Source of the DNA: a virus
Virus record (IMG/VR): IMGVR_UViG_3300017743_000002
Coordinates: 1 to 64,000 of that record
DNA: 64,000 bases
Reading direction: 5' to 3' (one strand)
Shown: piece by piece, positions 1 to 40,982 of the stretch
Position numbering within the stretch: position 1 is the stretch's first letter
How the letters are laid out: the number at the start of each line of letters is the position of its first letter
Notes under the pieces: model-generated
What the model saw: the letters and a program-made list of their open reading frames with translations, nothing else
The model's database searches: none
Told to the model about the DNA's origin: nothing
Program-made: the position numbers and the translations under genes

Positions 1-3000
1 ACCATTATAGTATAATCTTACTCTATCGTTTCGATAGTTAAGCATGTGCCATTCGTTATTTACATCATTGTAAATACCATTAGCAGAACTCATATCGTGC
101 ATAAACACAATTCTACCACCAATAGACCATCCTTCGTATCCACCTACATCCGAACCATAAGTTGCAACAGTACCATACTGTCCACCTTCATCTCTTACAG
201 CACGTAATCCACATCCTCTATCTTGGAAGTAAAGACCTGATGAACTTCTAGCTCTAAACCAGTTGTTTACATATATACTACTTTGATTTGATGTTGATGC
301 TGGGTCTACATAGTATCCAGTATTATTTGAATCGTAATATCTACCAGCATACATTGAACCACCATTACTACTATTCTCATCAAGAACAGGAATAGTTCTC
401 CAACTTCTCCATCCACTCCAAGAACTTCTGAATCTCAAGTTAGTAATTGGTCCACCAACCATCTGCCATCCGTAACCACCAGTGTTCGAACTACGATAAT
501 GGAATGCCTGCATTCCTACCCAGTGAGATGTACCTGAAGGTTGGTTACCTGGATTACTCCAAGAATCAATGAAACCAGAACCCCAAGTTGAAACAACGTT
601 CATATCTTGTCTACCCCATCCAAATGCACCAGTCCAATAGTTAGTATCACTGGTTTGACGAGGTCTAGCTCTATAATATTCACCACTATTTCTTGTATGA
701 CCCGGCTGACCTATGTAAGCCATCGTTCTATTACTCACACCTTCGAATCTCGTAGAGTGTGCAGATGCACCATCGAAATAATAACCAGTATTATTTGAAT
801 CATAAATAATTGGTGCTCTTAATGAAGAACCTGCTTGTAGGTTGTAGTTAACATATACGTTATTTGTACCTAATGGGTCAGTAGAGTTGTTAACAGACAT
901 GACCTGCGTTGCCATATTGTAATCGTTGTAGAAACGCATACCATTGTAAGATGCGTTTGCTCCAAACTTAATACCAGTATGGAATGCGATTCTTAAATCA
1001 GGATATCTATAAGACCATCCACCACCTTCTCTATAAATAGCGTATGCAGTACTTCTACCAGATGAGAAATACATACCAAATTGATGGTCTGTAGATACAT
1101 CATATCTATTACTAAGGTAATTTGCTCTTGTTACATTGGTAATTGTTGTAGATGCAAAATCACCATAATAACCAGTGTTGTTATTATCATAGAAAAGTGG
1201 ACTTCTTACATCAGAATTATGTCTAAAGTAATCTGAGTTTAATCTCGCTACTTCATTATTTGAACCAGTACCAAATATTGTTGTTCCACCATCATAGTAG
1301 TTAATATATGTAGTATATCCACTAGCTGAATCTAAGTGTAAGTTACCATTTGTAGTTACTACCGATGCAATCGATGAATTGTTTACGAATTCTCTACCAT
1401 TACCACCGACTTGTAAGTATCTTCCCCAACTATTGTTTGGTCCAATATAAATTCTTCCTCTAAATCTTGCAGCTTGTCCAGTTGAATTAGGGTCTACATA
1501 ATATCCAGTATCATTTGAATCATAGAAAAGTGGTGCTCTATAAGAACCTCGCGCTTGTACATATCCACTTTGAGTTCTTTGTTCCCAAGTACCATTGTAT
1601 CTTAGTTCCACATATGAGTTTCTATACATTAATATAGCCCACTCATTTTCATAATCATTATAGATACCAGCTGCGTTTGAATGGTCGTGCATAAACACCC
1701 ATCCACCATTAATAGAGTATCCACCCCATCCACCTCTAGTAGAATGAGTTCTAACAGTACCATAGTTACCACCTACTGTATCTCTACCAACACTAAATTC
1801 TAATGAACTACCATCAGTATAGAAATAAGTACCATTATCATTTTGGTGTCTGATTGCCCAACTTCCACCTTGGTCTAAGAAACCAATTTCATTTGAGTTA
1901 GTTGCGTAAACATATCCTCTAGCATTGTTACCAGATGTTGTGAATAAAATTTGTGATGTAGAAGAACCAGAATATGCTCTCCAACGAGATGATGAATCAG
2001 AATACCAATGCATTCCAGTTGATTGGTTATATAAACCTTCACCACTATTATCATTTCTGAACCAGTTTCTTGCATAGATTTCAGTTGCTCTTAAACCACT
2101 ATTAAGATTTGAGAAAGATGCAGGGTCTACATAATATCCAGTATTTGATGAATCATAAAAGATTGGAGACCTCATATCTGAGTAGTGATATGCGTAATCA
2201 GAGTTTACTCTAAACATTTCACTACCACCTCTTAACACTCTTATTGCATAGTTGTTAGTTGATGCCATTCTAAGGTCAATACCATAATCATCATCACCAG
2301 TTAAGATAATACCCCAGTCATTATTATTTGGTTTATCTAACCATAATAGTGCATCATCACCAGAAGCTTGATTATCAATACCACTCAATCGTAAACCACT
2401 CATTCTAGAATTATTTCGAGGGTTTACATAGAATCCAGTATCATTTCTATCATACATGATATTTGGTCGAATATCATTAAAGTACGATGTACTAGCAAAG
2501 TTACCATAGTATGATGTATTATTTCTATCATAGTAAATATCTGCTCTTACATCATTTAAATAAGATGTAGAGGCTGGGTCTAAGTAGAAACTATTACTAT
2601 TGGAATCATAAAATCTTTGTGCGTACATGTATTCTCCAGCATATACACTTTGACCACTATAAATGTTTCTGTTAGTAGCAAGACCTGGATATGAATCAGG
2701 TACTACTTCACATGCTGTTGTTGAACCAGGATTTCCTGTTCCTGATGTTGTTAATGACCAACCAGGAGATTGGAAGTTATTTGTTATTGCGTAATATAAT
2801 GTACCAGAAGTTCTTATATAAATTTGTAAGTAATGAGTATCATATGTACCACTTTTTCTAATTCTAATGTTATTAAAAATACCATTAGAACTATACCAAG
2901 ATTTACCTAACATAGTAATTGTACCTTGTTGACCATAAGAAATACCAGCAGTAAATGACATCGAACCATGTCTACTACTATTAGTATCCCACACATTGAA

Positions 3001-23186: not shown

Positions 23187-26100
23187 TTAATCCTGCAGTG
23201 CTAATGAGAATGGTGTTACAAGTGAGAATAACGATTTAGAGAATGTTCTACCCTCTAATGTACCAGAAGCTTGTTTAATAACAAGACCTCCACCAATTCT
23301 AAAGTCACCAAGTTCGTTACCAGAAGTAAAGAATACTCTACCTCCACCAATTTCAGTAATTTCCTTATCAGGATCAGGTACACCATCACCACCTTGGTTA
23401 GGAGGTAATGCTTTATAAGTTACACCAGCACCAGCGTAAGAGAAATCATGTCCAGTTGTAATAATTAAAGAACCAAACTCTTCAACAGGCGCTTGTCTAG
23501 CAGCGAATTGGAATTGAGTTCTTAAATATCTATTAGTTTCTGCAGTTTCTTTCTTTTGTTCGTTAATAACAACAGCTGCACTTCCATACACTCCATTGTA
23601 ATACGATTCAGCCGCTCTGATACTTCTCTCATTACCACCATAGATGATATCAGTTGCGATAGCATCTAAAATAAATCCAGTATCTCTATAACATTTTTCT
23701 TCATTGTAATCAAAAGTAGGGAATGCCGCATTTGTGTACGATATTGCCTTACCTTGTAATACTTTTTTCTCCGCTCTAAGTGCATTAGCTCCATTTTTAT
23801 TTAATAAGAATGGGAATACTAATTGTTGTTGTTTGATTATCTTTTCAGCCAACCCTTTTGAGAAATCAATACCATCAGTTGTTTGTGGTTTTTGTTCCGT
23901 AGTTGCGATTGAAGGAATATAGTAGTAGAATGTACCTGCTTGTACTGCTCTAGCATTACCACCATATGTTAAATCAGTTGCTACTGCATCTATGATGTAT
24001 CCTAAATCTCTACTACAACTAACTTCGTTGTATTCAAACTCACTCCAAGACGAACTTAGATAAGCGATTGTTTCTTTTTGTATAAATGTTGTGTTATCTC
24101 TTAATAACTGAACACCATTTTTAATTTCAGCTGATGGATTTATGTATTCTAAGTTTTGAACTACATTTTGTGAAGTTCCATTAGCAAATCTAATTCCATC
24201 AATTGTTGGGTCTAACTGATTAGCTTCTGATGGAGTACCACCCTTAGTTGCTCTTGATGGGTATCTCCAATAGTATAATCCAGCTACTCTACTTCTTTCA
24301 TTTCCACCGTAAACTAAATCAGTTACAGCTGCATCAATTATATATCCAGTATCTCTTCTACATTTATCTTCGTTGTAAGTTACATTACTCCAAGAAGATG
24401 ATATAAATTCGATAGTTTCATTTTGTACGAAACTTCTATTGTTTCTTAGTAATTCAGCCGATGCAGATACTTCAGATGTTGGTGAAACGAATATTGTATT
24501 TTCTAATACTTTTTCAGCCAATCTAGCAGAGTAGTTAATTCCATCAATTGTTTGATTTAATTGTCCGTTTGGATTAGTTTGGTAATTAACAGTTGCATCT
24601 GATGGGTATAAGTAATAGTACTCACCATTTACTCTACCTCTTTCATTTCCACCATATAAGAAATCCGTTGCTACACCATTTAAGATATATCCAGTATCTC
24701 TCTTACATTTATCTTCATTGTAATCAAATGTACTCCAAGAAGATGAGATGTAAGCGATTACTTCATTCTGAATAAATTCTTTATTATCTAAAAGAACTTT
24801 ATTTCCAGCTAATCTCTCAGCCGATGCCGTTACGAATATTTCGTTTTGTACTAATTTACTTGCCACATCACCCGCGTACTTAATACCCGTTGTAGTTGGT
24901 TCTAATTGAGTTGATGTTGCTGATGAAGGATATTTGTAGTAGTATTCTCCTGCAATCTTACTTCTTTGGTTACCACCATAAAGTAAATCAGTAGATACTG
25001 CATCTAAAATATGTCCAACATCTCTCATACAAGTTGCTTCTACATAATCAAACCCTTCCCAAGAAGAACTTAGGTAAGAAATTGATTCAGATTGAATAAA
25101 CTCTCTATTATTTCTAATTAATTCAACTGATGCTGATATTTGAGCTGATGGGAAATCAAATGTTACACCTTTAACGATTTGTTCAGTTAATTGTGATGCG
25201 TAATTGATACCATCAATAGTTTGTTGAGCTTGAGAACCAGTTCCATTAGCTTCAGATGGGAATTGATAGTAGAACTTAGCGTTTACTACTGATTGAGATA
25301 CGATTCCATATCTTAAATCTTCTGCTACACCATTTACAATAAATCCAACATCTCTTCTACACTTAACATCATCATAATCAAATCCTATCCACGAAGAAGA
25401 AATATATTCTACAACTTCATTTTGTATAAATGGTACACTTTCAGTAATCAATCCATATGTAGTTAGAATATCAGAACCAGTTAATAATGAACCATATTCA
25501 AATGCAGGTTGAACAACACTTACTGAATTTTGCTCAGTTCTAACAAATGTGTGAACTGATTGTGGTAAATGTTTAATTGCTCCATTTGATGCTGATACGA
25601 ATGTGTGAACTGATTGAGGTAGATGTTTTACAGCGTTTGTTGATGCAGATACAAATGTGTGTACCGAACCAGAAGCACTTCCACCATCTCCTACATTTAT
25701 TGTAAATGTACCAGTTTGTCTTTCTAATCCATCATTTGTAGCCGATACAAATGTATGTGTGTTTGTATATGAGGAAGAACCTATGTTTATATCAAACGTA
25801 TTTGTAGTTACATTAGAAATTTCTAACCATCTTCCATTTGGATAATCTATTCCAGCTCTTGGATATGATTTTTCAACAGTATCACCATCCAATACACAAG
25901 TATAAGTTAGAGAATTATTATCTAATTTGATATAATCACCATTACTAAAATTATGATTAGCTATTGTTATAGTAACATCACCAGTTGATGCGTTATAAGG
26001 AGCATCAGTTACAGTATGTGATGTAGTTCCAACTGAAGTAATAACTATTGATTGTTCAGCGTATGGGTCAGAACCACTTCTTGGATAAGAATGAACAGAT

Positions 26101-29100
26101 GTATCACCATCTTGGTCACAAGTAAATGCGAATGATTCATTTTCTAATACTACACTTCTACCAACACCTATACCATGCTGTCCAACAGTTACAATCATAT
26201 CACCACTTAATGCGTTGTAATCAACATCCGATGGTGTAAAGAATTTATTTGGACCCGAAATACCAACATTTACAGTCATTGTAGTATCAGTAATATCCGT
26301 TATCTTCATTGAACGTCCAGCGAATGGGTCAATACCAACTCTTGGATATGATTTAACTGATTGATTATTATCCATATCACAAGTGAAAGCAAATGATTCA
26401 ATATCTAAAATGATACCTTCACCAATACTTAAACTATGACTTTCAACAGTCATTACGAATTCACCCGTTGCTGGGTCATAAGATGCAGTTGTTGGATTAA
26501 ATTCTACATTAGGTCCAGACGCTCCTACGTTAACAGTTATAGTATTATTGGTTTTTGAAAGAATTTCTAATTCATTATTGTAAGCAGGTTGTCCAACTGA
26601 AGGTAATTTATCTTCAGTTTTGTTGTTATCCATATCACAAGTAAATGTGAACGATTCAGGTGATAAGTATATACCCTCACCCTCAGTATAAGAATGACTT
26701 TCAATTGTTAATACAAACTCACCATTTGATGGGTCATAAGTTGCGTTAGTTGGAGTTGAATCTGCTTTTCCATTAGCTATTGCATCTGATACAATTGCGA
26801 ATGAAGATGAAATTGTGTTAAAAATAGTAACATCAGTTATACTACTACCAGTTGCTGGTGAGAATGAAGTTACTTTAATTCCATTATCAGTATTCAAACT
26901 TCCTGTTTGAACAAATAATGTTTCTTTGTTAACTAATTTTTCAATTAAATCTTTAGTATAGATTAATGCATCAGTAGTTTCATCTAATTGATTACCAGTT
27001 GCTTCAGATGGGAATCTATAATAGAATTCACCAGCAGTTAATGCTCTTTGGTTTCCACCATATCTTAAATCAGTAGCAACAGCATCAATTATGAATCCAG
27101 TATCTCTACTACAACTTAATTCATTGTATTCAAAGTTTGGATATTTAGCGTTTACGAATGCTACAGTTTCAGCTTGTAAGAATTCTCTATTTTCTCTAAT
27201 TGTATCATAAACAAATTCAACTTCATTTGATGCAGTTTGGAAAACAGCTCCACTTACTATTTCAGTTACTATATTTTGTACATAATCAATAGCAGTTACA
27301 GTTGGGTCTTTTTGTCTATTTTCATTTGGTACACCACCACTAATAGCTGCTGATGGGAATCTGTAATAATAATCTCCAGCATTCACACTTCTTTCATTTC
27401 CACCATATAATAAATCAGTAGAAACTGCATCTATAATATGAGTAATATCTCTTTTACAAGTTATTTCATTATAAGTAAATCCATCCCACGAAGATGATAA
27501 GAATTCAATTGTTTCATTTTGAATAAATTCTCTATTATTTCTAATCAATTCATAAGAACCACTAACTACTGCGGATGCAGTTTGGAACGTATATCCTCTT
27601 ACAATACTTTCTGCTAATCTACCAGCATAATTAATACCATCTAAAGTTTGTTGTAATTGTGCACCTTGTGCCTGAGATGGGAAATCATAGTAGAATTTAC
27701 CATTGAATATAGATGCAGAATTTGCGTTATACAACATATCTTCAGCTGCCCCACTTATAATTCCTCCTATATCTCTACTACACTTACTTTCATCATATGA
27801 TGCAGTTGACCAAGAAGATGATAAATAAGCAATTGATTCACTTTGAATAAATCCAATATTTTCTTTTAATAAGTTATATGCTGCAATTGTTGTTGGTGAT
27901 TCTGATGGAGCTCCATACTCAACAACAGTTGGTAATGAACCAGTTCCATTTTTAACAATATTAGTTACAATTGCAATTGATGATGAAATTAATCTTTGTT
28001 GTAATCTATCTCCAAATGATTCAGATGTAAATTGAACTGCGTCAGTAACTTTAATTAAGTTATCAACATCAGAGTTATTTTTAACAACGTTTGGTTTAAC
28101 ACCCAATCCATTTTGTAATATATTTTCAATTATACCAACTGATGTATTTACTTTATTAATTTCAATTGATGAACCTACAATAGAAGAAGTAAACTGATTT
28201 GCTGAAGTTACTTTAATATTGTTTTCAGCATTAGTTACTAATTTTGGTAAAATACTTATTGAGTTATTTTCAGTTCTAACAAAAGTATGACCTGCCTGAG
28301 GTAAATGTTTAACTGCTCCTTTAGATGCAGATACAAATGTATGTAATGATTGAGGTTCATGTTTAACAGCGTTTGCTGAAGCTGATACGAATGTATGTAA
28401 TGAACCTGAAGCGCTTCCACCATCACCTACATTTATTGTAAATGTACCAGTTTGTCTCTCAATACCATTTGCTGCAGCTGATATAAATTTGTGTTCTCCT
28501 ATATATGATGATGCACCAATATTAATATTAAATGTATTCGTAGTTACATTAGAAATTTCTAGCCATCTTCCAGATGGGTAATCATAAGCAGGTCTTGGAT
28601 ATGATTTAGTAGTTGTATTATCATCTAATACACAAGTATAAGTTAATGCGTTATCAGCAACTTTAACATAATCACCATTACTAAATCCGTGATTGGCGAT
28701 TGTTAGTGTTACTACACCTGTTACTGAGTTGTATGGAGCGTTTGTTGGAGTATGCGATGTTGTACCTACCGAAGTAATCACAATTGATTGTTCAGCGTAT
28801 GGGTCAGAACCACTTCTTGGATAAGAGTGAGTTGTAGCATCTCCATCTTGGTCACAAGTGAACGCAAAAGATTCATTTTCTAATACTACACTTCTTCCTA
28901 CTCCTAAACCAAATGATTCAGTAACAGTTAGAGTCATATCACCACTTAAAGCATCATATGATGCAGTAGTTGGTGTAAAGTATTTATTAGGACCTGATAT
29001 ACCTACATTTACCGTCATTGTATTTGAAGTTACCGAAGTAAGTTTCATTGAACGTCCAGCGAATGGGTCAATTCCAAATCTAGGATAAGATTTAGTTGAT

Positions 29101-32100
29101 TGGTTGTTATCCATATCACAAGTAAATGCAAATGAACCAGTACTTAATACTATACCTTCTCCAACACTTAATGTGTGAGTTCCAGTTGTAATTACGAAAT
29201 CACCATTAGCAGGGTCATAAGTTGCATTAGTTGGAGTCCATTCAATATCAGGATCCGATGCTCCTACATTTACAGTTATAGTATCAGTAGTTTTTGCTGT
29301 TATCTCTAATTTATTAGTATAAGCAGGTTGTCCAACTGAAGGTAATTTGTGTTCAGTTCTGTTCCCATCCATCGTACAAGTAAATGTAAACGATTCTGGT
29401 CTTATATAAATTTCATCTCCAATATCCAAAGTATGATTTGGAATAGTAACTACAAAGTTTCCATTTGATGGGTCATAAGTTGCTGTTGTTGGAGTAAATG
29501 AACCTGTACCATTTTCTATGATATTAATAATTTCTCCAAATGATGAACTTACAATACCAAATTCAGTATCAGTTACATAAGTACCACTAGCAGTTACATA
29601 AGAACCAGTTGTTAGTTGTTGTGGAGTATCTAATGTATCATCAAACCACTTAGCTAATGCAAATGGTGTATCATCGGTTCCGAATCTAATAATATCATTA
29701 ATAAACCCTACACTACGAGTTACAAATGCTGATTCAACTTCACTACCACTTAGTGAAGAAGTAAATTGAGATGTATCATTAATTTTAATTAATCCTTCAA
29801 TATTTTCAGTTAATATAGGTAAAGTACTTACTGAATCTCGTTGAGTTCTAATAAATGTATGAGCTGATTGAGGTAAATGTTTCAATGCCCCATTGGAAGC
29901 TGATACAAAAGTATGAACTGATTGAGGTTCATGTTTAACTGCTCTATTGGATGCTGATACGAATGTATGTAATGAACCAGAAGCACTTCCACCATCTCCT
30001 ACATTAATTGTAAACGTTCCATCTTGTCTCTTCAATCCATTAGTAGTTGCTGATACAAATGTATGTGAACCTACATATGGTGAAGAACCTATATTGATAT
30101 CAAATGTGTTAGTTGTTACATTTGAAATTTCTAACCATCTTCCACTTGGATAATCGTAATTAGGTCTTGGGTAAGATTTTGTAGTTATATTTTTATCTAA
30201 TACACAAGTATAAGTTAGAGAATTATCATCTAATTTTATGTAATCTCCATTATTGAAATTGTGGTTAGCTATTGTAATAGTTACATCACCAGTTGCAGAA
30301 TCATATGGTGCATCGGTTACACTATGAGAAGTAGTTCCAACTGAAGTGATTTTTATTGATTGCTCAGCGTATGGGTCAGAACCACTTCTTGGATAAGAAT
30401 GAGTAGTTACGTTACTATCCATATCACAAGTGAATGCAAATGATTCGTTTTCTAACACCACACTTCTACCAACACCCAATCCGAATGATTCAGTAACAGT
30501 TAGAGTCATATCTCCACTTAGAGAATTGTAAGAAGCAGATACAGGTGTGAAATATTTATTCGGACCTGATACTCCTACATTAAATGTCATTGTAGTATCA
30601 GTTACAGCCGTAAGAGGAAGTGAACGTACTGAATACGGGTCAATACCAACTCTTGGGTAGGATTTAACTGATTGGTCGTTATCCATATCACAAGTAAATG
30701 CGAATGATTCAGGTGACATTACTACACCTTCACCAATACTTAAACTATGACTTGCTACAGTTACAACAAATTCCCCAGTTAATGGGTCATAAGATGCAGT
30801 TGATGGATTGTATTCTACATTTGGACCCGATTTACCAACGTTTACAGTTATAGTATCTGATGTTGTTGATTTAATTGTTAATCTATTATCATAAGCAGGT
30901 TGTCCAATTGATGGAAGTTTGTGCTCAGTTCTATTTCCATCCATATCACAAGTGAATACAAATGATTCAGGTTTTAGATAGATACTATCACCACTATGTA
31001 AATTATGTTTAGGTACAGTCATTAAGAAATCACCATTAGCAGGGTCATAAGTTGCTGTTTTAGGTGTGAATGATTCAATACCTGTTTTTATAATTCCAGT
31101 TACAATATCATATGATTCACTAACTTCAGTTTGATATGAACCACTCAATGCAATTGATGAAGATACTGAATTAAATGATGTTACTTTTATATTTCCATCA
31201 CTATTAGAAACTTTAGATGGAGTTTTAGTTATTAATTGAGATAAAACACTTATTGAGTTATTTTGAGTTCTAACAAAAGTATGACCTGCCTGAGGTAGGT
31301 GTTTTACTGCTCCATTAGAAGCTGATACAAAAGTATGAACTGATTGTGGTAAATGTTTTACAGCGTTTATTGATGCTGATACAAATGTATGTATTGAGCC
31401 ACTTGCACTTCCACCATCTCCAACGTTTATTGTAAATGTTCCAGTTTGTCTTTCTAAACCATTTGTTGTAGCTGATACAAAAGTATGAGCTGATGTGTAA
31501 GATGATGAACCAATGTTAATATCGAAAGTATTAGTTGTTACATTAGAAATTTCTAACCATCTTCCAGATGGGTAATCATAACCAGGTCTTGGATATGATT
31601 TCTCAACACTATTACCATCTAATATACAAGTATAGGTTAGAGAATTATCAGAAAGTTTGATATAATCTCCATTACTAAATCCATGTCCTGTGATTGTTAT
31701 AGTAACATCACCAGTAGATGCATCATAAGGTGCATTAGTTATAGTATGGGATGTAGTTCCAACTGAATTTATTACAATTGATTGTTCCGCATATGGGTCT
31801 GAACCTAATCTTGGGTAAGAGTGAACAGATGTATCACCATCTTGGTCACAAGTGAAAGCAAAAGATTCGTTTTCTAATACTACACTTCTTCCTACTCCTA
31901 ATCCGTGCTGTCCAACAGTTACAACCATATCACCACTCAATGCGTTGTAATCAACATCAGTTGGTGTAAATAATTTATTCGGAGCCGATACTCCAACATT
32001 AACAGTCATTGTTGTATCAGTAACATCAGTTATAATCATTGAACGACCTGCAAATGGGTCTATTCCAAATCGAGGGTAAGATTTAACAGATTGGTTATTG

Positions 32101-35100
32101 TCCATATCACAAGTGAATGCAAATGAACCAGTATCTAATACGATACCCTCACCAATACTTAAACTATGATTACCAGTTGTGATTACAAATTCTCCAGTTG
32201 CTGGGTCATAAGATGCAGAAGAAGGTGTGAACTCTACATTAGGACCTGATTTACCAACATCCACAGTTATAGTATCTTCGGTTACCGATTTAACTTTTAA
32301 TTTATTATTATATGCTGGTTGTCCAATTGATGGTAATTTATGTTCCGTTCTATTATTATCCATTGTACAAGTGAATACAAACGATTCTGGTCTTATACAA
32401 ATTTCATCCCCAACATCTAAACCATGTTTAGAAATAGTAACTACAAAGTCTCCATTTGATGGGTCATAAGTTGCTGTTGTTGGAGTAAATGTTTTTTGTG
32501 TAATTATATCTCTAACTAAATTCTTAGCATATACAATACCCTCAATAGTTTCTACTTTTTGTACGGTAGTTGCTTCAGATGGGAATAAGTAATAAAATTC
32601 TCCACTCTTAATACTTCGTTGATTACCACCCCATAAGAAATCGGTTGCAACACCATCTAAGATGTGTCCAACATCTCTTCTACACTTTTCTCTATTATAT
32701 GTAAAGAATGGGAATGTGTAATCAATGTATTCAGTTACTTCTTTTTGAATTAAAGTTCTATTATCTCTAATCGTATTCCAAATACTTAATTTAGTTTCTG
32801 AAGGTTGTACTAATACTACATTCTGAATTAATTTTTGAACTAAGTTAGCTGCATGTACGATACCATCGATAGTTTGTGTTTTTTGAACACTTGTTGCTTC
32901 TGATGGATATAAGTAATAGTACTCACCAGCAATAACACTTCTTTCATTTCCACCATATCTTAAATCGGTAGATACAGCATCTAAGATGTGTCCAACATCT
33001 CTACTACATTTAGCTTCATCATAATCAAATCCAACCCAAGAAGATGAAATGTAAGCAATTACTTCAGCTTGAACCAATTCTCTATTTTGTTCTATCGTTT
33101 GATATAATCCTTCTCTTTCTACTGATGGATTTACTAATATAGTATTACTCATTACCTTATCAGATAATCTTTGAGCATGAACTATACCATCAACAGTTTG
33201 GTCTAATTGTGAACCTTGTGCTTGTGATGGATATTTGTAATAGAAATCTCCAGCAATTATACTTCTCTCATTTCCACCATACAATAAATCAGTAATTGCT
33301 GCATCTATTATGTATCCAGTATCTCTCTTACATTTTACATCATCATAATCAGCTGCATTCCAAGAAGATGAAACATATTCAATTACTTCATTTTGGATTA
33401 AATCTCTATTTTCTAATACTAAGTTATAAGCATTTACTTTATCTGAAGATAGTGGTGTAAATACTGCTCCACTTACTACTTTTTGTGCAACTTCACCAGC
33501 ATATTCAATACCATCTAAAGTTGGGAATAGTTGAGAACCAGTTGCTTCAGATGGGAATTTATAATAGAATATACCAGCATTAATTGTTCTTTCGTTACCA
33601 CCATAAACAATATCAGTAATTGATGCATCTAAGATGTGTACGATATCTCTTTTACAAGTTTCTTCTGGATAATCAAAATCACTCCAAGAAGCTGATAGGA
33701 ATGCAATTCCCTCTTCTTTAATAAACTCTTTATTATTGTTTATAATTGTTTGTGTATCTAATCTATCTTGAACTGGATTTGAGAATGTTACATTCGATGC
33801 TATTTTTTGTGCTACCCTACTTGCGTATCGAATTCCATCAATCGTTTGACTCAATTGTGAACCTTGTGCTTGTGATGGATACTCTAAGTAGAACTTACCA
33901 TTAAAGATAGATGCTGAGTAAACATTGTGAATTAAATCTTCAGCTGCTCCACTAACAATACCAGCAACATCTCTCATACATTTATCTTCATCATATGATG
34001 CAGTTGACCAAGAAGATGATAAGTATGCTATTGTTTCTTCTTTTATGAAATCAATATTTGATTTTAATAAGTTGTAAGCTGCAACAGTTGATGAAGCAGT
34101 TACCTCACTACCATACAATGATGATGATTCATAAGAACCACTTCCAAATTCTATAATCTTAGTTACAATATCAAATGCCCCAGAAATAAATTCTATATCT
34201 GCAGCTGATGCTGAGATAGAAGATGTAGTAAACTGAGTTTCAGTTGTTACTGCGATTGCTTCTTCAGTATTATCAATTTGTGGAGGAATTACAGTTACCG
34301 AATCATTTATAGTTCTAACAAATGTGTGAACTGATTGTGGTAGATGTTTAACTGCTCCATAAGATGCTGATACGAATGTGTGAACTGATTGTGGTTCATG
34401 CTTAACTGCATTTGTTGATGCAGATACAAATGTATGGATTGAACCACTTGCACTTCCACCATCACCTACATTAATTGTAAATGTACCATCTTGTCTTTTT
34501 ATTCCATTAGTTGTAGCAGATACAAATGTATGTGCTCCAGTGTAAGAAGATGAACCTATATTAATATCAAATGTATTAGTTGTTACATTTGAAATTTGTA
34601 ACCATCTTCCAGATGGAGAATCATATCCAGCTCTTGGATAAGATTTCTGAGTTGTGTTTCCATCTAATACACAAGTATAAGTTAATGCACCATCATCAAC
34701 TTTTATATAATCATTATTAGAGAATCCATGATTAGAGATTGTGAGTGTTACGATACCAGTTGTTGGATTGTATGGTGCATTTGTTGGAGTATGTGATGTA
34801 GTTCCAACTGAAATAATTTTTATCGATTGTTCTGCATATGGGTCTGAACCACTTCTTGGGTAAGAGTGAGTTGTAGAATCACCATCTTGGTCACAAGTAA
34901 ATGCGAATGATTCATTTTCTAATACTACACTTCTACTTACACCCAATCCATGTTGACCTACTGTCAATACCATTTCCCCAGTCAATGCATTATAATTAAC
35001 ATCAGATGGAGTAAAATATTTATTAGGACCTGAGATACCAACATTTACAGTCATTGTATTATTGGTAACATCAGTTATAATCATTGAACGACCAGCGTAA

Positions 35101-38100
35101 GGGTCTATACCCAATCTAGGGTAAGATTTAACTGATTGGTCATTATCCATATCACAAGTGAAAGCAAATGATTCAGTATCTAATATAATTCCCTCACCAA
35201 CACTTAAAGTATGTGTACCAGTTGTTATTACAAATTCTCCAGTTGCTGGGTCATAAGATGCGTTAGTTGGATTAAATTGTACATTAGGACCTGATTTGCC
35301 AACATTTACAGTTACAGTATTATTTGTTACAGATTTAATTCCTAATTTAGTATTGTAAGCAGGTTGACCAACTGAAGGTAATTTGTGTTCAGTTTTGTTA
35401 TCATCCATTTCACAAGTAAATGTGAATGATTCTGGTTTTAGATAGATACTATCAGTTTTTCTAAATTTGTGATTTGGAATAGTCATTACAAAATCACCAT
35501 CAGCAGGGTCATAAGTTGCTGTTGTTGGAGTAGAACCAGTTCCAAATTCTATAATATCTAATACAGTTTCAAATGAAGATGATAATTTAGATATAAGAGT
35601 TTCTGAACCAACTAATGAAGAAGTAAATTGAGTTGCATCACTTCTTTTAACTAAACCTTCAATGTTTTTAGTTAGAATTGGTAAAGTACTTACTGAATCT
35701 TTGTTTGTTCTAACAAAAGTATGAACTGATTGAGGTAAGTGTTTAATAGCTTTTCTCGATGCAGATACAAATGTGTGAACTGATTGTGGTTCATGCTTCA
35801 CAGCGTTTGATGAAGCTGATACAAATGTATGTAAAGAGTTTGATGCCGTTCCACCATCTCCTACATTTATTGTAAATGTACCAGTTTGCCTTCTTATACC
35901 ACCAGTAGTTGCCGATACAAATGTATGTGCTGATTTATATGATGATGCTCCAATGTTAATATCAAATGTATTAGTTGTTACATTTGAAATCTCTAACCAT
36001 CTTCCACTTGGATAATCATATCCAGCTCTTGGATAAGATTTTTGAACAGTGTTTCCATCCAATACACAAGTATAGATTAAAGCTCCATTATCAACCTTAA
36101 CATAATCTCCATTACTAAATCCATGTCCAGCAATAGTTAAAGTTACAATTCCAGTTGATGCGTTATAAGGAGCATCAGTTGGTGTGTGTTGAGTATTTCC
36201 AACTGATTTAATTTCTATCGATTTACCAGCATATGGGTCAGAACCTGGTCTTGGATACGAATGTGTTGTAGCATCTGAATCTTGGTCACAAGTAAATGCG
36301 AATGATTCATCTTTTAATACTACACTTCTTCCAACTCCTAAACCATGCTGTCCAACAGTTACAATCATATCACCAGTCAATGCATTATAAGATGCAGATG
36401 TTGGAGTAAAGTATTTATTTGGACCCGATGCTCCAACGTTAAACGTCATTGTTGTATCAGTTACCGAAGTAATTGGAATAGAACGAACTGCAAATGGGTC
36501 AATACCAACTCTTGGATATGATTTAACCGCCTGGTCATTATCCATATCACAAGTGAATGCAAATGCTTCTGGTGAAAGTATAATACCTTCTCCAACACTT
36601 AAAGTATGTTTACCAACAGTTGCAACGAAATTTCCAGTTAATGGGTCATAACTTGCGTTAGTTGGATTGAATTCTATATTCGGACCTGATTTACCAACGT
36701 TTACACTTATGGTATTATCAGTTATTGAATTTATTGTTAATTGTTTATTGTATGCGGGTTGTCCAACTGAAGGTAATTTATGCTCAGTTCTATTACCATC
36801 CATATCACAAGTGAATACGAATGATTCTGGTCTTAAATAAATTCTATCATTAACATCTAAATCATGTTGAGAAATAGTCATTACAAACTCACCATCAGCT
36901 GGATTATACGTTGCTGTTGTTGGTGTATAAGAATCTATACCACTTTTTAGAATCCCAACTACCGTACTGAATCCTCCACTTACTATATTTCTATCAGAAA
37001 CACTAGCATCTAAGGATGAAGTATATTGTACACCATCAGTTACTTTTATATTATTTTTAGTGTTTACTACTTTTTCAAATTCACCTTTAGTTGGAACATA
37101 AACAAATTCCTGCTCAGATGATAATGGTAAACTATCTACAATGTTTATTACACCACTAGCCGAAACATTTGTTGGATTCACATAGAAAAGTGTATCAGGT
37201 GTATCTACTAAAGGAGTAAATGTTATCGTACCAAATGTAATACCATTATTTATTAAACCAATACTTTCATATACATCATATGTAGTACCAGCAGTTCTTT
37301 TGGTTTTAATTAAGAATGGTGCATTAATATTAATATCTTCAAAACCTAAATCATTAACAGAGAAAGTGTACATTTCATTTCTAACCAATGTTAACGTTGG
37401 GTCTTTTTTAGAACCCAAGAAAGAACCAGTATCTTCTCCACCTAATCTCCATCCTTCTCTACCATCAAAGTATTTTAATTGATTATCATTAATATAAAAT
37501 GCAGTTGAATCGTTTGGTAAAGAAACAACTTCAAAATAAGATGAAGAATTAGCTGAACCTGATATTTCCTTACTTCCACTAATTCCATACTCAACAATAT
37601 CAATTACAGTTCTAAATGATTCTGAAATTTCTGATGAAATTGGAGTTGATGCTGATATAGAAGATGTATATTGTGAATTGTTATTAAACTTAATTCCATC
37701 TTTTACATTTGAAACTTCTACTATATCATTTGGTAATGTTGTACCAATTGTAGTTGTTATTAAGTTATCACCATAAGAATTTTTAGGAATACCAACTTGA
37801 GAAATAGGTAAACCATTTGGTGCAAATCCAACAACTATATCTGAAGTTATTGAGCTTCCACTTTCTATAATCGTAGTTACTATTTCGAATGATTGAGAAA
37901 TACTACTAAGTTCACTATTACTAGCAGTTATCGATGAGGTTATTAATGTTGTACTACTAACTAACTTTGGCTCTTCTAATGTCCATTCTAAATTAGGTGT
38001 ATTACCAGCAATAGCTGCAAGTAATGAATCTTCACCTTGCTTAATAATATCTTCAACTAATCCAAATGAAGAACTAACTTTTACTTTTTCAGTTTCACTA

Positions 38101-40982
38101 CCAGATACCAAAGATGATGAGAATGGTAGAATATTACCAACTTTAACTCTTGAATATGTGTTATCAATTACCGCTGGAGCTTCTACTATTTCATTTACAA
38201 TTACTTTATCAATAAATGATTTAGCGTAAGAAATACCATCAACAGTTTCATTTAGTTGGTCTCCATTTACTTTCGAAGGAATTTCACCATAGTATAATCC
38301 AGCTCTAACTGATTTTTGATTACCACCATAATATAAATCAGTTGCAACTGCATCTACAATAAATCCAGTATCTCTTTTACATTTATCTCTTAGGTAAACT
38401 AAGTTAGGAAACTGAGTATCAATAAAGTTTACAGTTTCTTCTTGAATTAAACTTCTATTTTCAACAATTAAATCGTATGTTGATTGTATGATTGCTGATG
38501 CCGTTACGAATGTATCTTTAACAACTAATTTTTTAGATAAATCTCTTGCCCACTCTATACCATCTAATGTTGGTAATAGTTGTGTTGTTGTAGCAGTTGA
38601 TGGGTATAGGTAATAGAACTCACCAGCTATTCTACTTCGTTCATTACCACCATATCTTAAATCAGTTGAAACTGCATCTATAATATGTCCAACATCTCTT
38701 TTACATTTATCTTCATCATAATCAAAGTTTCTCCAAGAAGATGATACATAAGAAATTACCTGATTTTGTATAAATAATTTATTATTTGTTAATAAATCAT
38801 ATCCGTTTATAACATTTACAGATGGCTCTACATAGGTTACATCACCAATCACCCTTTCTGCTATTCCACCAGCATATCTAATAGCATCTAATGTTTGTTG
38901 TTTTTGTGATGATGTTGCTTCTGATGGATATAGGTAATAGAAATTTCCATTTAAAACGGATTCTTCATTACCACCATATAATAAGTCGTGAGCTGCACCA
39001 CTTACAATATACCCTAAATCTCTTTTACAAGTTGTTTCATTATAATCAAATGTACTCCAAGATGAAGAAAGATATGCTATTGTTTCTTCTTGAATAAATG
39101 ATAAATTACCTAATAATGCATTGTATCCATTTTGATAATCAATTGATGGATTTTCAAATGAAGAACTTTGAATAATACTAGGTGCATAATCTGGACCTAA
39201 TTCTAAAATTCTATAAACAGTTGCAAATGAAGAACTAATCTTATTTCTTACTTCTGCACTTGAAGAAATATCAGTAATAAATTGAGGTGTTTCAGTTATT
39301 TTTATATTACCAGCATTTGATGATGTAATTGGTGGTAATGGATTATCAGTATCATCCAGTCCAAACTCTACTATTCGTAAAACAGAATTATAATTTCTAT
39401 TAATTATATCAACTTCAGTTTGAGTTGTTGCATCTGAAGTTATATAAGGAGTTTCATTTCCAACTTTTACTAAACCATCTATATTATCTACTAAAGTATA
39501 ACTAGCAGTTGCTCTAGCTCCAATTTCTAACGTTTCTTTTACTTTATCAAATCTATCTTCGATTATTGCTAATTCAGTAGAGGTTGCTGATGTTGAACCT
39601 GTTATTTGATTTCCAAATGATACATTCCAAACCGAACCAGTGTTATATCCTCTTGTTGCTGATTTAGCTAATAAAGATGGAATATTACTTATACCACTTG
39701 ATACAATGTTTGAAACTAATCTATATTCTGATTTTGCCTGTTCTGCAACTTTATCAGATGAATTATTACTACTAAATTGTTGTAATTCATCAGTTACTTT
39801 GATACCATCATTTGTATTTGGTACAAATTCAGGTATTGCAGTTAACCCATCCTCAATTGTATCAATAATAATTGTATAACCATCTCTTACTCTATTAAAT
39901 GCTTCTAAGTTACCACCACTACCAGTAATAAACCTAGACCCACTAGCATACATACCAAAATCACCAAACGATGTGTTTGAGTTTAGAAGTACTGCTTGTC
40001 CACCATCTAATACCTTTACAGAATATGCTGAGAAGTTTGTAAAGAAGGATACCAACTGAATAAATCCTCTACCTACAACTTGACAACCCACACCATTAGG
40101 TGCGATTTGTGTATATGCATCCAATACCATTGAAGCAAGAGGTGAATCAGGATGGATTATATTTCCATCTACATTCAATCCACCACCACCAGCAGGAATA
40201 TCCTCATATGCTTCTAAGAATGAGTTCTCCTGATTCGAAATCATCGAACAGTTCTGAACATAAGGAGATGTTGTAATAAATGAGTTTGGTGCGAATGCAA
40301 TTGCGAAACCACTTCGAGAGTTATCTACTGATGGAAATACTCTCAATCCAGCAAATGTCATCTCTGAAAGGTAACATCCACTATTTACCCAAAATAAATC
40401 TTCGTTTTCGTTTTTAGCTACAATCTTAGTTACCCTTAAACCAGCTCCCCATACAGTTGTATTCTTTGGAAGTTCAATTGGGTTTTCTTCTAAGTAAGTT
40501 CCAGCAGATACTTCAATTGCAAAACCAGTAAATAAAGAACCAGTTGGTAACCCAAATCTACCATCATCTCCCGCAGTTGCTAATTCAGCAGCTCTTTTTA
40601 CAGTTCTTAATGGAAATTGTGGTGTTCTACCATCATTTGTATCATCACCAGAAGTTGAAGATACATAAATAGTAGCATCCATTGCTCCGAAATCTTCAGG
40701 TTTGATTCCACCAAATAATCTTGAATCTAACGATTCTAATGAAACGGATGATGTTAATTCTAATGCTTGGTCACCAACTACATTAAGAGGTCCATCAATA
40801 GTAAGTGAACCACTTAATTCAACTGAACCAGTTATAGTAGATTTTTCAGAAGGGTCTGAACCTAAAGTAAAACTTTGAGATACAAGTAAAGAGCCAGATA
40901 TAGATACACCTTGCGCAAAGGAGGTATCCCTAATAAAATCCTGTATCTCTTCTACCTGTTTTCTGGATATTAATCTTGCCAT
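23187..40982 (-). CDS. Giant repeat-containing virion protein (5931 aa): N-terminal pectin-lyase-like beta-helix, 17 CxRD helical repeats, 6 nested beta cassettes
   Basis: 'IYVS...GDDTNDG..P..PLRTVKRA' and 'SPYVQNCS' near the N-terminus; repeat families are visible in the translation; single 17.8-kb uninterrupted ORF. Confidence 0.9.
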   Translation of the reverse strand: MARLISRKQVEEIQDFIRDTSFAQGVSISGSLLVSQSFTLGSDPSEKSTITGSVELSGSLTIDGPLNVVGDQALELTSSVSLESLDSRLFGGIKPEDFGAMDATIYVSSTSGDDTNDGRTPQFPLRTVKRAAELATAGDDGRFGLPTGSLFTGFAIEVSAGTYLEENPIELPKNTTVWGAGLRVTKIVAKNENEDLFWVNSGCYLSEMTFAGLRVFPSVDNSRSGFAIAFAPNSFITTSPYVQNCSMISNQENSFLEAYEDIPAGGGGLNVDGNIIHPDSPLASMVLDAYTQIAPNGVGCQVVGRGFIQLVSFFTNFSAYSVKVLDGGQAVLLNSNTSFGDFGMYASGSRFITGSGGNLEAFNRVRDGYTIIIDTIEDGLTAIPEFVPNTNDGIKVTDELQQFSSNNSSDKVAEQAKSEYRLVSNIVSSGISNIPSLLAKSATRGYNTGSVWNVSFGNQITGSTSATSTELAIIEDRFDKVKETLEIGARATASYTLVDNIDGLVKVGNETPYITSDATTQTEVDIINRNYNSVLRIVEFGLDDTDNPLPPITSSNAGNIKITETPQFITDISSSAEVRNKISSSFATVYRILELGPDYAPSIIQSSSFENPSIDYQNGYNALLGNLSFIQEETIAYLSSSWSTFDYNETTCKRDLGYIVSGAAHDLLYGGNEESVLNGNFYYLYPSEATSSQKQQTLDAIRYAGGIAERVIGDVTYVEPSVNVINGYDLLTNNKLFIQNQVISYVSSSWRNFDYDEDKCKRDVGHIIDAVSTDLRYGGNERSRIAGEFYYLYPSTATTTQLLPTLDGIEWARDLSKKLVVKDTFVTASAIIQSTYDLIVENRSLIQEETVNFIDTQFPNLVYLRDKCKRDTGFIVDAVATDLYYGGNQKSVRAGLYYGEIPSKVNGDQLNETVDGISYAKSFIDKVIVNEIVEAPAVIDNTYSRVKVGNILPFSSSLVSGSETEKVKVSSSFGLVEDIIKQGEDSLLAAIAGNTPNLEWTLEEPKLVSSTTLITSSITASNSELSSISQSFEIVTTIIESGSSITSDIVVGFAPNGLPISQVGIPKNSYGDNLITTTIGTTLPNDIVEVSNVKDGIKFNNNSQYTSSISASTPISSEISESFRTVIDIVEYGISGSKEISGSANSSSYFEVVSLPNDSTAFYINDNQLKYFDGREGWRLGGEDTGSFLGSKKDPTLTLVRNEMYTFSVNDLGFEDININAPFLIKTKRTAGTTYDVYESIGLINNGITFGTITFTPLVDTPDTLFYVNPTNVSASGVINIVDSLPLSSEQEFVYVPTKGEFEKVVNTKNNIKVTDGVQYTSSLDASVSDRNIVSGGFSTVVGILKSGIDSYTPTTATYNPADGEFVMTISQHDLDVNDRIYLRPESFVFTCDMDGNRTEHKLPSVGQPAYNKQLTINSITDNTISVNVGKSGPNIEFNPTNASYDPLTGNFVATVGKHTLSVGEGIILSPEAFAFTCDMDNDQAVKSYPRVGIDPFAVRSIPITSVTDTTMTFNVGASGPNKYFTPTSASYNALTGDMIVTVGQHGLGVGRSVVLKDESFAFTCDQDSDATTHSYPRPGSDPYAGKSIEIKSVGNTQHTPTDAPYNASTGIVTLTIAGHGFSNGDYVKVDNGALIYTCVLDGNTVQKSYPRAGYDYPSGRWLEISNVTTNTFDINIGASSYKSAHTFVSATTGGIRRQTGTFTINVGDGGTASNSLHTFVSASSNAVKHEPQSVHTFVSASRKAIKHLPQSVHTFVRTNKDSVSTLPILTKNIEGLVKRSDATQFTSSLVGSETLISKLSSSFETVLDIIEFGTGSTPTTATYDPADGDFVMTIPNHKFRKTDSIYLKPESFTFTCEMDDNKTEHKLPSVGQPAYNTKLGIKSVTNNTVTVNVGKSGPNVQFNPTNASYDPATGEFVITTGTHTLSVGEGIILDTESFAFTCDMDNDQSVKSYPRLGIDPYAGRSMIITDVTNNTMTVNVGISGPNKYFTPSDVNYNALTGEMVLTVGQHGLGVSRSVVLENESFAFTCDQDGDSTTHSYPRSGSDPYAEQSIKIISVGTTSHTPTNAPYNPTTGIVTLTISNHGFSNNDYIKVDDGALTYTCVLDGNTTQKSYPRAGYDSPSGRWLQISNVTTNTFDINIGSSSYTGAHTFVSATTNGIKRQDGTFTINVGDGGSASGSIHTFVSASTNAVKHEPQSVHTFVSASYGAVKHLPQSVHTFVRTINDSVTVIPPQIDNTEEAIAVTTETQFTTSSISASAADIEFISGAFDIVTKIIEFGSGSYESSSLYGSEVTASSTVAAYNLLKSNIDFIKEETIAYLSSSWSTASYDEDKCMRDVAGIVSGAAEDLIHNVYSASIFNGKFYLEYPSQAQGSQLSQTIDGIRYASRVAQKIASNVTFSNPVQDRLDTQTIINNNKEFIKEEGIAFLSASWSDFDYPEETCKRDIVHILDASITDIVYGGNERTINAGIFYYKFPSEATGSQLFPTLDGIEYAGEVAQKVVSGAVFTPLSSDKVNAYNLVLENRDLIQNEVIEYVSSSWNAADYDDVKCKRDTGYIIDAAITDLLYGGNERSIIAGDFYYKYPSQAQGSQLDQTVDGIVHAQRLSDKVMSNTILVNPSVEREGLYQTIEQNRELVQAEVIAYISSSWVGFDYDEAKCSRDVGHILDAVSTDLRYGGNERSVIAGEYYYLYPSEATSVQKTQTIDGIVHAANLVQKLIQNVVLVQPSETKLSIWNTIRDNRTLIQKEVTEYIDYTFPFFTYNREKCRRDVGHILDGVATDFLWGGNQRSIKSGEFYYLFPSEATTVQKVETIEGIVYAKNLVRDIITQKTFTPTTATYDPSNGDFVVTISKHGLDVGDEICIRPESFVFTCTMDNNRTEHKLPSIGQPAYNNKLKVKSVTEDTITVDVGKSGPNVEFTPSSASYDPATGEFVITTGNHSLSIGEGIVLDTGSFAFTCDMDNNQSVKSYPRFGIDPFAGRSMIITDVTDTTMTVNVGVSAPNKLFTPTDVDYNALSGDMVVTVGQHGLGVGRSVVLENESFAFTCDQDGDTSVHSYPRLGSDPYAEQSIVINSVGTTSHTITNAPYDASTGDVTITITGHGFSNGDYIKLSDNSLTYTCILDGNSVEKSYPRPGYDYPSGRWLEISNVTTNTFDINIGSSSYTSAHTFVSATTNGLERQTGTFTINVGDGGSASGSIHTFVSASINAVKHLPQSVHTFVSASNGAVKHLPQAGHTFVRTQNNSISVLSQLITKTPSKVSNSDGNIKVTSFNSVSSSIALSGSYQTEVSESYDIVTGIIKTGIESFTPKTATYDPANGDFLMTVPKHNLHSGDSIYLKPESFVFTCDMDGNRTEHKLPSIGQPAYDNRLTIKSTTSDTITVNVGKSGPNVEYNPSTASYDPLTGEFVVTVASHSLSIGEGVVMSPESFAFTCDMDNDQSVKSYPRVGIDPYSVRSLPLTAVTDTTMTFNVGVSGPNKYFTPVSASYNSLSGDMTLTVTESFGLGVGRSVVLENESFAFTCDMDSNVTTHSYPRSGSDPYAEQSIKITSVGTTSHSVTDAPYDSATGDVTITIANHNFNNGDYIKLDDNSLTYTCVLDKNITTKSYPRPNYDYPSGRWLEISNVTTNTFDINIGSSPYVGSHTFVSATTNGLKRQDGTFTINVGDGGSASGSLHTFVSASNRAVKHEPQSVHTFVSASNGALKHLPQSAHTFIRTQRDSVSTLPILTENIEGLIKINDTSQFTSSLSGSEVESAFVTRSVGFINDIIRFGTDDTPFALAKWFDDTLDTPQQLTTGSYVTASGTYVTDTEFGIVSSSFGEIINIIENGTGSFTPTTATYDPSNGNFVVTIPNHTLDIGDEIYIRPESFTFTCTMDGNRTEHKLPSVGQPAYTNKLEITAKTTDTITVNVGASDPDIEWTPTNATYDPANGDFVITTGTHTLSVGEGIVLSTGSFAFTCDMDNNQSTKSYPRFGIDPFAGRSMKLTSVTSNTMTVNVGISGPNKYFTPTTASYDALSGDMTLTVTESFGLGVGRSVVLENESFAFTCDQDGDATTHSYPRSGSDPYAEQSIVITSVGTTSHTPTNAPYNSVTGVVTLTIANHGFSNGDYVKVADNALTYTCVLDDNTTTKSYPRPAYDYPSGRWLEISNVTTNTFNINIGASSYIGEHKFISAAANGIERQTGTFTINVGDGGSASGSLHTFVSASANAVKHEPQSLHTFVSASKGAVKHLPQAGHTFVRTENNSISILPKLVTNAENNIKVTSANQFTSSIVGSSIEINKVNTSVGIIENILQNGLGVKPNVVKNNSDVDNLIKVTDAVQFTSESFGDRLQQRLISSSIAIVTNIVKNGTGSLPTVVEYGAPSESPTTIAAYNLLKENIGFIQSESIAYLSSSWSTASYDESKCSRDIGGIISGAAEDMLYNANSASIFNGKFYYDFPSQAQGAQLQQTLDGINYAGRLAESIVRGYTFQTASAVVSGSYELIRNNREFIQNETIEFLSSSWDGFTYNEITCKRDITHIIDAVSTDLLYGGNERSVNAGDYYYRFPSAAISGGVPNENRQKDPTVTAIDYVQNIVTEIVSGAVFQTASNEVEFVYDTIRENREFLQAETVAFVNAKYPNFEYNELSCSRDTGFIIDAVATDLRYGGNQRALTAGEFYYRFPSEATGNQLDETTDALIYTKDLIEKLVNKETLFVQTGSLNTDNGIKVTSFSPATGSSITDVTIFNTISSSFAIVSDAIANGKADSTPTNATYDPSNGEFVLTIESHSYTEGEGIYLSPESFTFTCDMDNNKTEDKLPSVGQPAYNNELEILSKTNNTITVNVGASGPNVEFNPTTASYDPATGEFVMTVESHSLSIGEGIILDIESFAFTCDMDNNQSVKSYPRVGIDPFAGRSMKITDITDTTMTVNVGISGPNKFFTPSDVDYNALSGDMIVTVGQHGIGVGRSVVLENESFAFTCDQDGDTSVHSYPRSGSDPYAEQSIVITSVGTTSHTVTDAPYNASTGDVTITIANHNFSNGDYIKLDNNSLTYTCVLDGDTVEKSYPRAGIDYPNGRWLEISNVTTNTFDINIGSSSYTNTHTFVSATNDGLERQTGTFTINVGDGGSASGSVHTFVSASTNAVKHLPQSVHTFVSASNGAIKHLPQSVHTFVRTEQNSVSVVQPAFEYGSLLTGSDILTTYGLITESVPFIQNEVVEYISSSWIGFDYDDVKCRRDVGFIVNGVAEDLRYGIVSQSVVNAKFYYQFPSEANGTGSQAQQTIDGINYASQLTEQIVKGVTFDFPSAQISASVELIRNNREFIQSESISYLSSSWEGFDYVEATCMRDVGHILDAVSTDLLYGGNQRSKIAGEYYYKYPSSATSTQLEPTTTGIKYAGDVASKLVQNEIFVTASAERLAGNKVLLDNKEFIQNEVIAYISSSWSTFDYNEDKCKRDTGYILNGVATDFLYGGNERGRVNGEYYYLYPSDATVNYQTNPNGQLNQTIDGINYSARLAEKVLENTIFVSPTSEVSASAELLRNNRSFVQNETIEFISSSWSNVTYNEDKCRRDTGYIIDAAVTDLVYGGNERSRVAGLYYWRYPSRATKGGTPSEANQLDPTIDGIRFANGTSQNVVQNLEYINPSAEIKNGVQLLRDNTTFIQKETIAYLSSSWSEFEYNEVSCSRDLGYIIDAVATDLTYGGNARAVQAGTFYYYIPSIATTEQKPQTTDGIDFSKGLAEKIIKQQQLVFPFLLNKNGANALRAEKKVLQGKAISYTNAAFPTFDYNEEKCYRDTGFILDAIATDIIYGGNERSIRAAESYYNGVYGSAAVVINEQKKETAETNRYLRTQFQFAARQAPVEEFGSLIITTGHDFSYAGAGVTYKALPPNQGGDGVPDPDKEITEIGGGRVFFTSGNELGDFRIGGGLVIKQASGTLEGRTFSKSLFSLVTPFSLALQD
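23510..39130 (-). repeat. 17 helical repeats of about 85-95 aa (N...I..E......Y...KCxRDxGxIxDAVxxDLxYGGN) in 4 blocks
   Basis: Blocks: about 38200-39130 (3 copies), 32500-34085 (5), 26930-27885 (3) and 23510-25460 (6). Confidence 0.9.
25518..36930 (-). repeat. Six cassettes of about 1.24 kb (about 410 aa), each with four TPTxAxY...FTCxxD...HTFVSA domains
   Basis: Cassettes at about 35690-36930, 34290-35535, 31250-32490, 29828-31070, 28255-29498 and 25518-26760. DNA-level identity is visible (e.g. recurrent gggtcagaaccacttcttggataaga). Confidence 0.9.

Follow-up and report, generated by a model that had tools for sequence, protein, structure and literature searches.

Probable four-level recursive self-insertion of a small beta-barrel domain in a giant phage fibre-type protein

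The 64,000-nucleotide stretch of marine phage DNA analysed here (positions 1–64,000 of the IMG/VR record IMGVR_UViG_3300017743_000002; hereafter the window) encodes a giant open reading frame (ORF) whose fibre-type product contains six homologous cassettes, each of which is very probably a four-level recursive self-insertion of one ~92-amino-acid (aa) beta-barrel domain. In the proposed architecture, domain 2 would interrupt domain 1 at the loop that leads into its last strand, domain 3 would interrupt domain 2 at the equivalent loop, and domain 4 would interrupt domain 3 one loop earlier, such that the chain would run outward via three unfinished barrels, finish the innermost one and return, adding the last strands of domains 3, 2 and 1. 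A preliminary description of the window had proposed six cassettes of four openings and four closings at positions 25518–36930, and these were found between 25533 and 36926: the protein contains exactly 24 [FY]TCxxD motifs, which mark the opening pieces (openers, O), and 24 H[TK]F[VI] motifs, which mark the closing pieces (closers, C), in the order OOOOCCCC repeated six times, with none elsewhere in the protein. The cassettes, which follow one another from window position 36926 down to 25533, are ~408 aa long, share the same seven pieces of 86, 87–88, 74, 93, 32, 18 and 18 aa, and have a pairwise identity of 64–70% when their flanks are included (Table 1).

Rejoining the pieces that the proposed insertions would separate (pieces 1 + 7, 2 + 6 and 3 + 5) yields composite sequences that can be aligned with the complete piece 4 over its full length, at 34–56% identity. 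The pieces of the window were also scored with a profile of 92 positions built solely from complete domains of other loci. Domain 4 covers positions 1–92 of this profile, the openers of domains 1 and 2 cover positions 1–81, with the final strand absent, and the opener of domain 3 covers positions 1–71, with the final two strands absent. The 32-aa closer alone covers positions 69–92 and, when added to its own opener of domain 3, extends coverage to positions 1–92 with a gain of 17 bits. On these alignments, the break in domain 3 comes one loop before the position of the breaks in domains 1 and 2, and the extra length of its closer matches this difference exactly, which would be unexpected for a separate closing domain. 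Profile coverage and the rejoined alignment thus both show a host domain interrupted by a complete homologous domain, while the profile and the relatives described below show the missing C-terminal pieces returning in reverse order and complementing the truncations.

The cassette is common to 320 phage records (50–64% identity), mostly of T4-like Synechococcus and Prochlorococcus myoviruses, in which it is labelled as structural or tail-fibre protein (one of them being Syn1_101, which belongs to the structural module of phage Syn1); models of Syn30, ACG-2014d and S-SSM7 proteins in BFVD also match, with E-values down to 1e-49. The grammar of openers and closers was examined in 76 IMG/VR loci, using a hidden Markov model for the openers and the motif for the closers. 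In addition to single complete domains and the standard four-deep cassette, these loci contain a nest of two levels that uses a third insertion point (opener of 59 aa and closer of 46 aa), a second two-deep type (opener of 85 aa and short closer) and three-deep nests from which the domain-1-type opener and the HTFVR-type closer are both missing. Across the relatives, closer length shifts together with the insertion point. The strings of opener and closer tokens form balanced brackets in most proteins, and all of the apparent violations inspected were either cassettes cut by the end of the locus or misses of motif variants, the sources of false violations being HxLD in the CxRD repeats (see below), HDLD within openers, the variants HTYV, HTFT and QTFK, and cuts at locus ends. 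Opener count equals closer count in each distinct nest that lies whole inside its locus. When 77 distinct nests were paired by stack, the domain-1-type opener met the HTFVR-type closer in 65 of 66 cases; this matching of types is informative mainly where architecture varies, because the order is fixed in standard cassettes.

The same grammar extends to greater depth in one relative (locus L050, IMGVR_UViG_3300028196_000027), where eleven barrels at ORF aa ~160–1530 read, by sequence, as a single well-formed nest seven levels deep in which all typed pairs match last-in-first-out. To judge from its sequence, this nest apparently lies within an outer variant barrel closing with ..IAHDYDFGG, making eight levels. 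A related barrel subfamily, with closers of the ..IAHTY[VI]SGG type, was observed in three further loci (L055, aa ~680–760; L074, aa ~917–1770; L051, aa ~1356–1430) and in some proteins hosts nests or lies next to CxRD units. This suggests that insertion of this kind involves several families of barrel.

An AlphaFold2 (AF2) model of cassette 1 with its flanks (aa 1296–1815) was obtained from an alignment of 73 cassettes drawn from the window and the 76 viral contigs. The predicted local distance difference test (pLDDT) score was >90 nearly throughout the cassette and <50 in the flanks, with a predicted template modelling (pTM) score of 0.71. The model was read by structure comparison with 48,161 chains, using VIA-align. 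The single small barrels found in this way superpose on model ranges of four kinds, with 65–97 aligned residues and root-mean-square deviations (rmsd) of 2.3–3.6, and each range corresponds either to domain 4 or to one opener together with its proposed closer (Table 1). For example, 67 residues of the 74-residue chain 3hay_B align over model residues 54..473, and the two ends of the cassette must therefore form one compact barrel in the predicted model. In this model, then, discontinuous pieces make up single compact domains. The preliminary description had read the four homologous domains as recursively inserted, with the HTFV strands closing domains 3, 2 and 1, a reading that profile coverage, the AF2 superpositions and the grammar of the relatives bear out; the opposite case that it had named, in which the trailing HTFV strands form a separate domain, does not appear in the AF2 model. 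Its out-and-back course of the chain follows from the nested topology. DSSP assigns strands on both legs of each junction (model residues 141–143/451–453, 228–230/433–435 and 293–304/401–411) and at the neck (56–57/469–471), and their positions in the model suggest that the outgoing and returning linkers are paired.

Table 1 Positions of the giant ORF, the six cassettes, the pieces of cassette 1 and the preceding repeat unit in the window, and of the barrels in the predicted model.
Feature	Position	Strand	Description
Giant ORF P0001	window 23187..40982	(-)	5,931 aa; fibre-type / virion structural protein; contains all six cassettes
~50-aa 'third repeat' unit	window 36927..37079	(-)	aa 1302–1352; directly ahead of cassette 1
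Cassette 1	window 35703..36926	(-)	aa 1353–1760; four putative nested barrels
Cassette 1, piece 1	window 36669..36926	(-)	domain 1 opener, 86 aa; ends after penultimate strand, profile 81/92
Cassette 1, piece 2	window 36408..36668	(-)	domain 2 opener, 87 aa; ends at profile 81/92
Cassette 1, piece 3	window 36186..36407	(-)	domain 3 opener, 74 aa; one hairpin shorter, profile 71/92
Cassette 1, piece 4	window 35907..36185	(-)	domain 4, complete innermost barrel, 93 aa
Cassette 1, piece 5	window 35811..35906	(-)	domain 3 closer, 32 aa; final two strands, profile 69–92
Cassette 1, piece 6	window 35757..35810	(-)	domain 2 closer, 18 aa; final strand, KHEPQ..HTFVSA type
Cassette 1, piece 7	window 35703..35756	(-)	domain 1 closer, 18 aa; final strand, KHLPQ..HTFVR type
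Cassette 2	window 34308..35531	(-)	from aa 1818
Cassette 3	window 31263..32486	(-)	from aa 2833; sole cassette preceded by a CxRD-type unit
Cassette 4	window 29841..31067	(-)	from aa 3306; domain 3 without His21 (ESFGL)
Cassette 5	window 28269..29495	(-)	from aa 3830; domain 3 without His21, domain 4 closer HKFI
Cassette 6	window 25533..26756	(-)	from aa 4743; a CxRD-type unit comes next
Domain 4	model 300..406		
Domain 3	model 226..437		opener 231–304 + closer 398–429
Domain 2	model 139..453		opener 144–230 + closer 430–447
Domain 1	model 54..475		opener 58–143 + closer 448–465

Both ends of the cassette belong to domain 1, and the four-barrel module would therefore hang as a branch off the main chain of the giant fibre-type protein, which consists of small helical repeats in a long array. 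Folding of such a module would proceed inside-out, and the outgoing and returning linkers, if paired, would stiffen the arm. The barrels may serve as surface adhesion or spacer modules, possibly binding glycans by analogy with the endosialidase barrel. The preliminary description had proposed rigid arms with 24 possible Cys/Asp/His metal sites, and the conserved residues offer a candidate for how the returning strands are held. Among 320 distinct openers, Cys40 is present in 100%, Tyr7 and Gly12 in 99%, Pro52 in 96%, Asp43 in 93% and His21 in 87%, and position 49 is either His (47%) or Lys (45%); in the 48 complete domains, Tyr7, Gly12, Cys40, Pro52 and His87 are invariant. As read from these alignments, the invariant lone Cys40 and the last-strand His87 fit a metal or other clamp that may fasten the late-arriving last strand, and we consider such a clamp a real possibility, if at somewhat less than even chances. 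Phage fibres can hold structural metal, such as the His-coordinated Fe/Zn of T4 gp37/gp12.

The His21 motif (..GQHGL..) gives way to ..ESFGL.. in several relatives as well as in domain 3 of cassettes 4 and 5. Slightly the better bet is that the Cys/His/Asp set is not a metal site at all but a cluster held by packing or hydrogen bonds, or a site of other chemistry such as a covalent cross-link or a redox-sensitive thiol, a reading favoured by the incomplete conservation of His21, including its loss from these two domains, by the absence of Asp43 from many single-domain relatives and by the nearly equal use of His and Lys at position 49. To our knowledge, neither of the closest folds, the E1 FCCH barrel and the endosialidase barrel, is known as a metal-binding domain. 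Against the non-metal reading stands the invariance of Cys40 in the 320 distinct copies and of His87 in the 48 complete domains, which would be hard to get from packing alone in an exposed virion protein. The most far-reaching combination of these proposals, in which a depth of nesting beyond any other known (four levels in the present cassettes and seven to eight in L050), a Cys40/His87 metal clamp, strict co-translational inside-out folding and stiff, branched, multivalent adhesion arms all hold jointly, is rather doubtful.

Several points weigh against recursive nesting as such. The three-dimensional evidence is a prediction rather than a solved structure, strand pairing and inter-domain geometry were seen indirectly, via aligned ranges and DSSP only, and the span of domain 2 rests on one VIA-align row. 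At the level of the profile, adding the 18-aa closers to the openers of domains 1 and 2 brings no gain in score, because the penalty for the ~10-aa linker cancels what the strand contributes; for these two openers, the closers assigned last-in-first-out and first-in-first-out score equally, and domain 3 alone discriminates between the two orders. Furthermore, a monomer model is compatible with strand exchange between the chains of an intertwined-trimer fibre. Many phage fibres are intertwined trimers, and in a strand-swapped trimer the closers would complete the barrels of neighbouring chains, with the nesting in our monomer model being an intramolecular image of that exchange. We regard this as improbable: the monomer is confidently predicted without partners at the pLDDT and pTM values given above, the short linkers between closers (18-aa spacing) fit a return within one chain, and single complete domains of this family exist and need no partner. 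A plain tandem array, in which domains 1–3 are short but complete and the trailing HTFV pieces form a separate small beta-meander domain, is more improbable still, for although a Foldseek search with the whole model returned only multi-FN3 arrays of the beads-on-a-string kind (TM-score ~0.1, uninformative) and the openers of domains 1 and 2 already reach 85–92 bits without a closer on the profile of complete domains, the openers end at profile positions 81 and 71 with closers of exactly complementary lengths, closer length in relatives follows the moved insertion point (59 + 46 aa), openers equal closers in every whole distinct nest, with the exceptions inspected being truncations or motif misses, and single barrels superpose on the model over 54..475, 139..453 and 226..437.

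The identity of the inserted barrel was also assessed. Domain 4 modelled alone has seven strands and a pLDDT of 94.6. In VIA-align, both the cassette model and the lone domain are matched best by the barrel of E1 FCCH, the barrel of phi92 endosialidase and a head-to-tail protein of phage FCWL1. Within the cassette model, domain 4 matches 4p22_B (Z-score 7.9, rmsd 2.6, 77 residues aligned) and 4hiz_A (Z-score 7.7, rmsd 2.3, 83 residues aligned); the top matches have Z-scores of 7.5–7.9 with the cassette model and 5.7–6.1 with the lone domain, where the same four chains lead, values in the range that VIA-align terms a 'common arrangement'. Foldseek with domain 4 alone gave no match at E <= 0.001 (E >0.05). 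No curated family was matched above threshold by the cassette and its flanks in Pfam and NCBIfam. The E1_FCCH family (PF16190) scores 15.0 bits on domain 4 and does not reach its gathering cut-off of 29.5. Across 48 copies, the sub-threshold Pfam matches are led by DUF7243 (25 copies, best E 0.0026), together with E1_FCCH (17 copies, best E 0.0033) and End_beta_barrel (PF12195; 2 copies, best E 0.014), and the nearest named ESM Atlas cluster bears E1_FCCH. Sequence searches of PDB yielded just one match to an iota-carbonic anhydrase, at chance level, with the cassette as query, and no match at E <= 10 with a profile of 48 domain sequences. Given the sub-threshold Pfam scores and the lack of a significant Foldseek match, the domain is best described as a small barrel outside known classes, with a weak resemblance to those of E1 FCCH and endosialidase, rather than as a member of either family. 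Those two barrels are the closest structural matches to domain 4 and are themselves inserted domains, but the Cys40/His87 signature and the self-nesting are foreign to both families.

Domain insertion is common and self-recursive insertion rare, with Si3 of the cyanobacterial RNA polymerase beta' subunit (RpoC2) being one prominent example in the literature. A 2026 survey of domain insertion found most insertions to be single-level and named Si3 as the extreme, the Prochlorococcus Si3 comprising eight hybrid-motif domains that are inserted recursively over six levels (PMC13114784). Like Si3, the cassette would be made of one small beta-rich domain family repeatedly inserted into its own copies, has a sequence of the A1-B1-C-B2-A2 type and would form an arm that branches off the host chain and rejoins it at a single place. 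Unlike Si3, it uses another domain family, whose best, weak matches are the E1 FCCH and endosialidase barrels, and occurs in a virion fibre-type protein as a module copied six times per chain; the seven to eight levels read from the sequence of L050 exceed the six reported for Si3. No RNA polymerase chain is among the 50 matches listed in either VIA-align search, and a relationship with the Si3 fold is still conceivable. No description of this architecture was found in literature on nested insertion combined with cyanophages or tail fibres, and none of the cyanomyovirus fibre records and papers compared mentions nesting. The principle known from Si3 would recur in another domain family that is widespread in marine cyanophage fibres. 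Its nests of 1 to ~8 levels provide a natural series in which to study the folding of discontinuous domains, the evolution of nesting depth and the construction of branched fibre arms. Annotation and domain-parsing software would misread such regions as truncated tandem repeats followed by an array of orphan strands.

Assignment of the giant ORF as a fibre-type protein is based on its matches to tail-fibre and virion-structural PHROG families (phrog_5342, phrog_701, phrog_4527 and phrog_17885). Over the cassette, phrog_5342 (E 4.5e-94) and phrog_701 (E 3.1e-49) are significant profile matches, and tail-fibre PHROGs are also matched by the N- and C-terminal parts of the protein. The minus strand carries every large ORF of the window, including those for terminase, portal, major capsid and head-tail adaptor proteins and two more giant ORFs, and the terminase, portal, capsid and adaptor genes around it mark the window as a phage structural module. 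The annotation of its homologues and its place among virion genes indicate that the 5,931-aa protein probably sits on the virion. The whole cassette is also present in the giant proteins that T4-like cyanomyoviruses use as tail fibres or virion structural components (phrog_5342, phrog_701; for example Syn1_101). The capsid gene (window 44743–46344), however, is closest to the capsids of Flavobacterium phage vB_FspM_immuto and Microcystis phage Mel-JY01 (53% identity); judged by this protein, the phage of the window is not a typical cyanomyovirus. The affinities of the two genes differ, with the cassette being closest to the fibres of T4-like Synechococcus and Prochlorococcus myoviruses (<=64%), and from these sequence comparisons the mismatch would be in keeping with phage lineages having exchanged fibre modules, or with a cyanobacterial host.

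Outside the cassettes, the giant protein contains two further kinds of repeat. Sixteen helical repeats of ~108 aa with an invariant C-x-R-D motif were observed between aa 652 and 5656: three precede cassette 1, five separate cassettes 2 and 3, three separate cassettes 5 and 6, and the last five follow cassette 6. The other modules are linked by a ~50-aa unit (..IKVT..QFTSS....ISSSF..V..II..G) present in ~19 copies, for example at aa 386–596, 941–1134 and 4246–4349, which appears in the AF2 model as a low-confidence helix. The preliminary description had placed most cassettes inside this third type of repeat. Adjacency holds for five of the six, which directly follow a ~50-aa repeat ending ..II..G..S[FY], with cassette 3 following a CxRD-type unit instead, but the cassettes lie at junctions between units and not demonstrably within one. 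Just behind every one of the six cassettes lies a conserved ..[DN]S[VI]S[VT].P.. segment (for example at window 35680–35702), whichever unit comes next, and in the model its SVS strand (residues 469–471) lies beside the pre-cassette strand (56–57), such that the two may form a two-stranded neck. The two other giant ORFs, at window positions 1–9369 and 11503–22260 on the minus strand (>3,123 aa and 3,585 aa, respectively), are without these barrels. The G+C content of the window is elevated at positions 12001–16000, where it reaches 0.43–0.47 compared with ~0.32.

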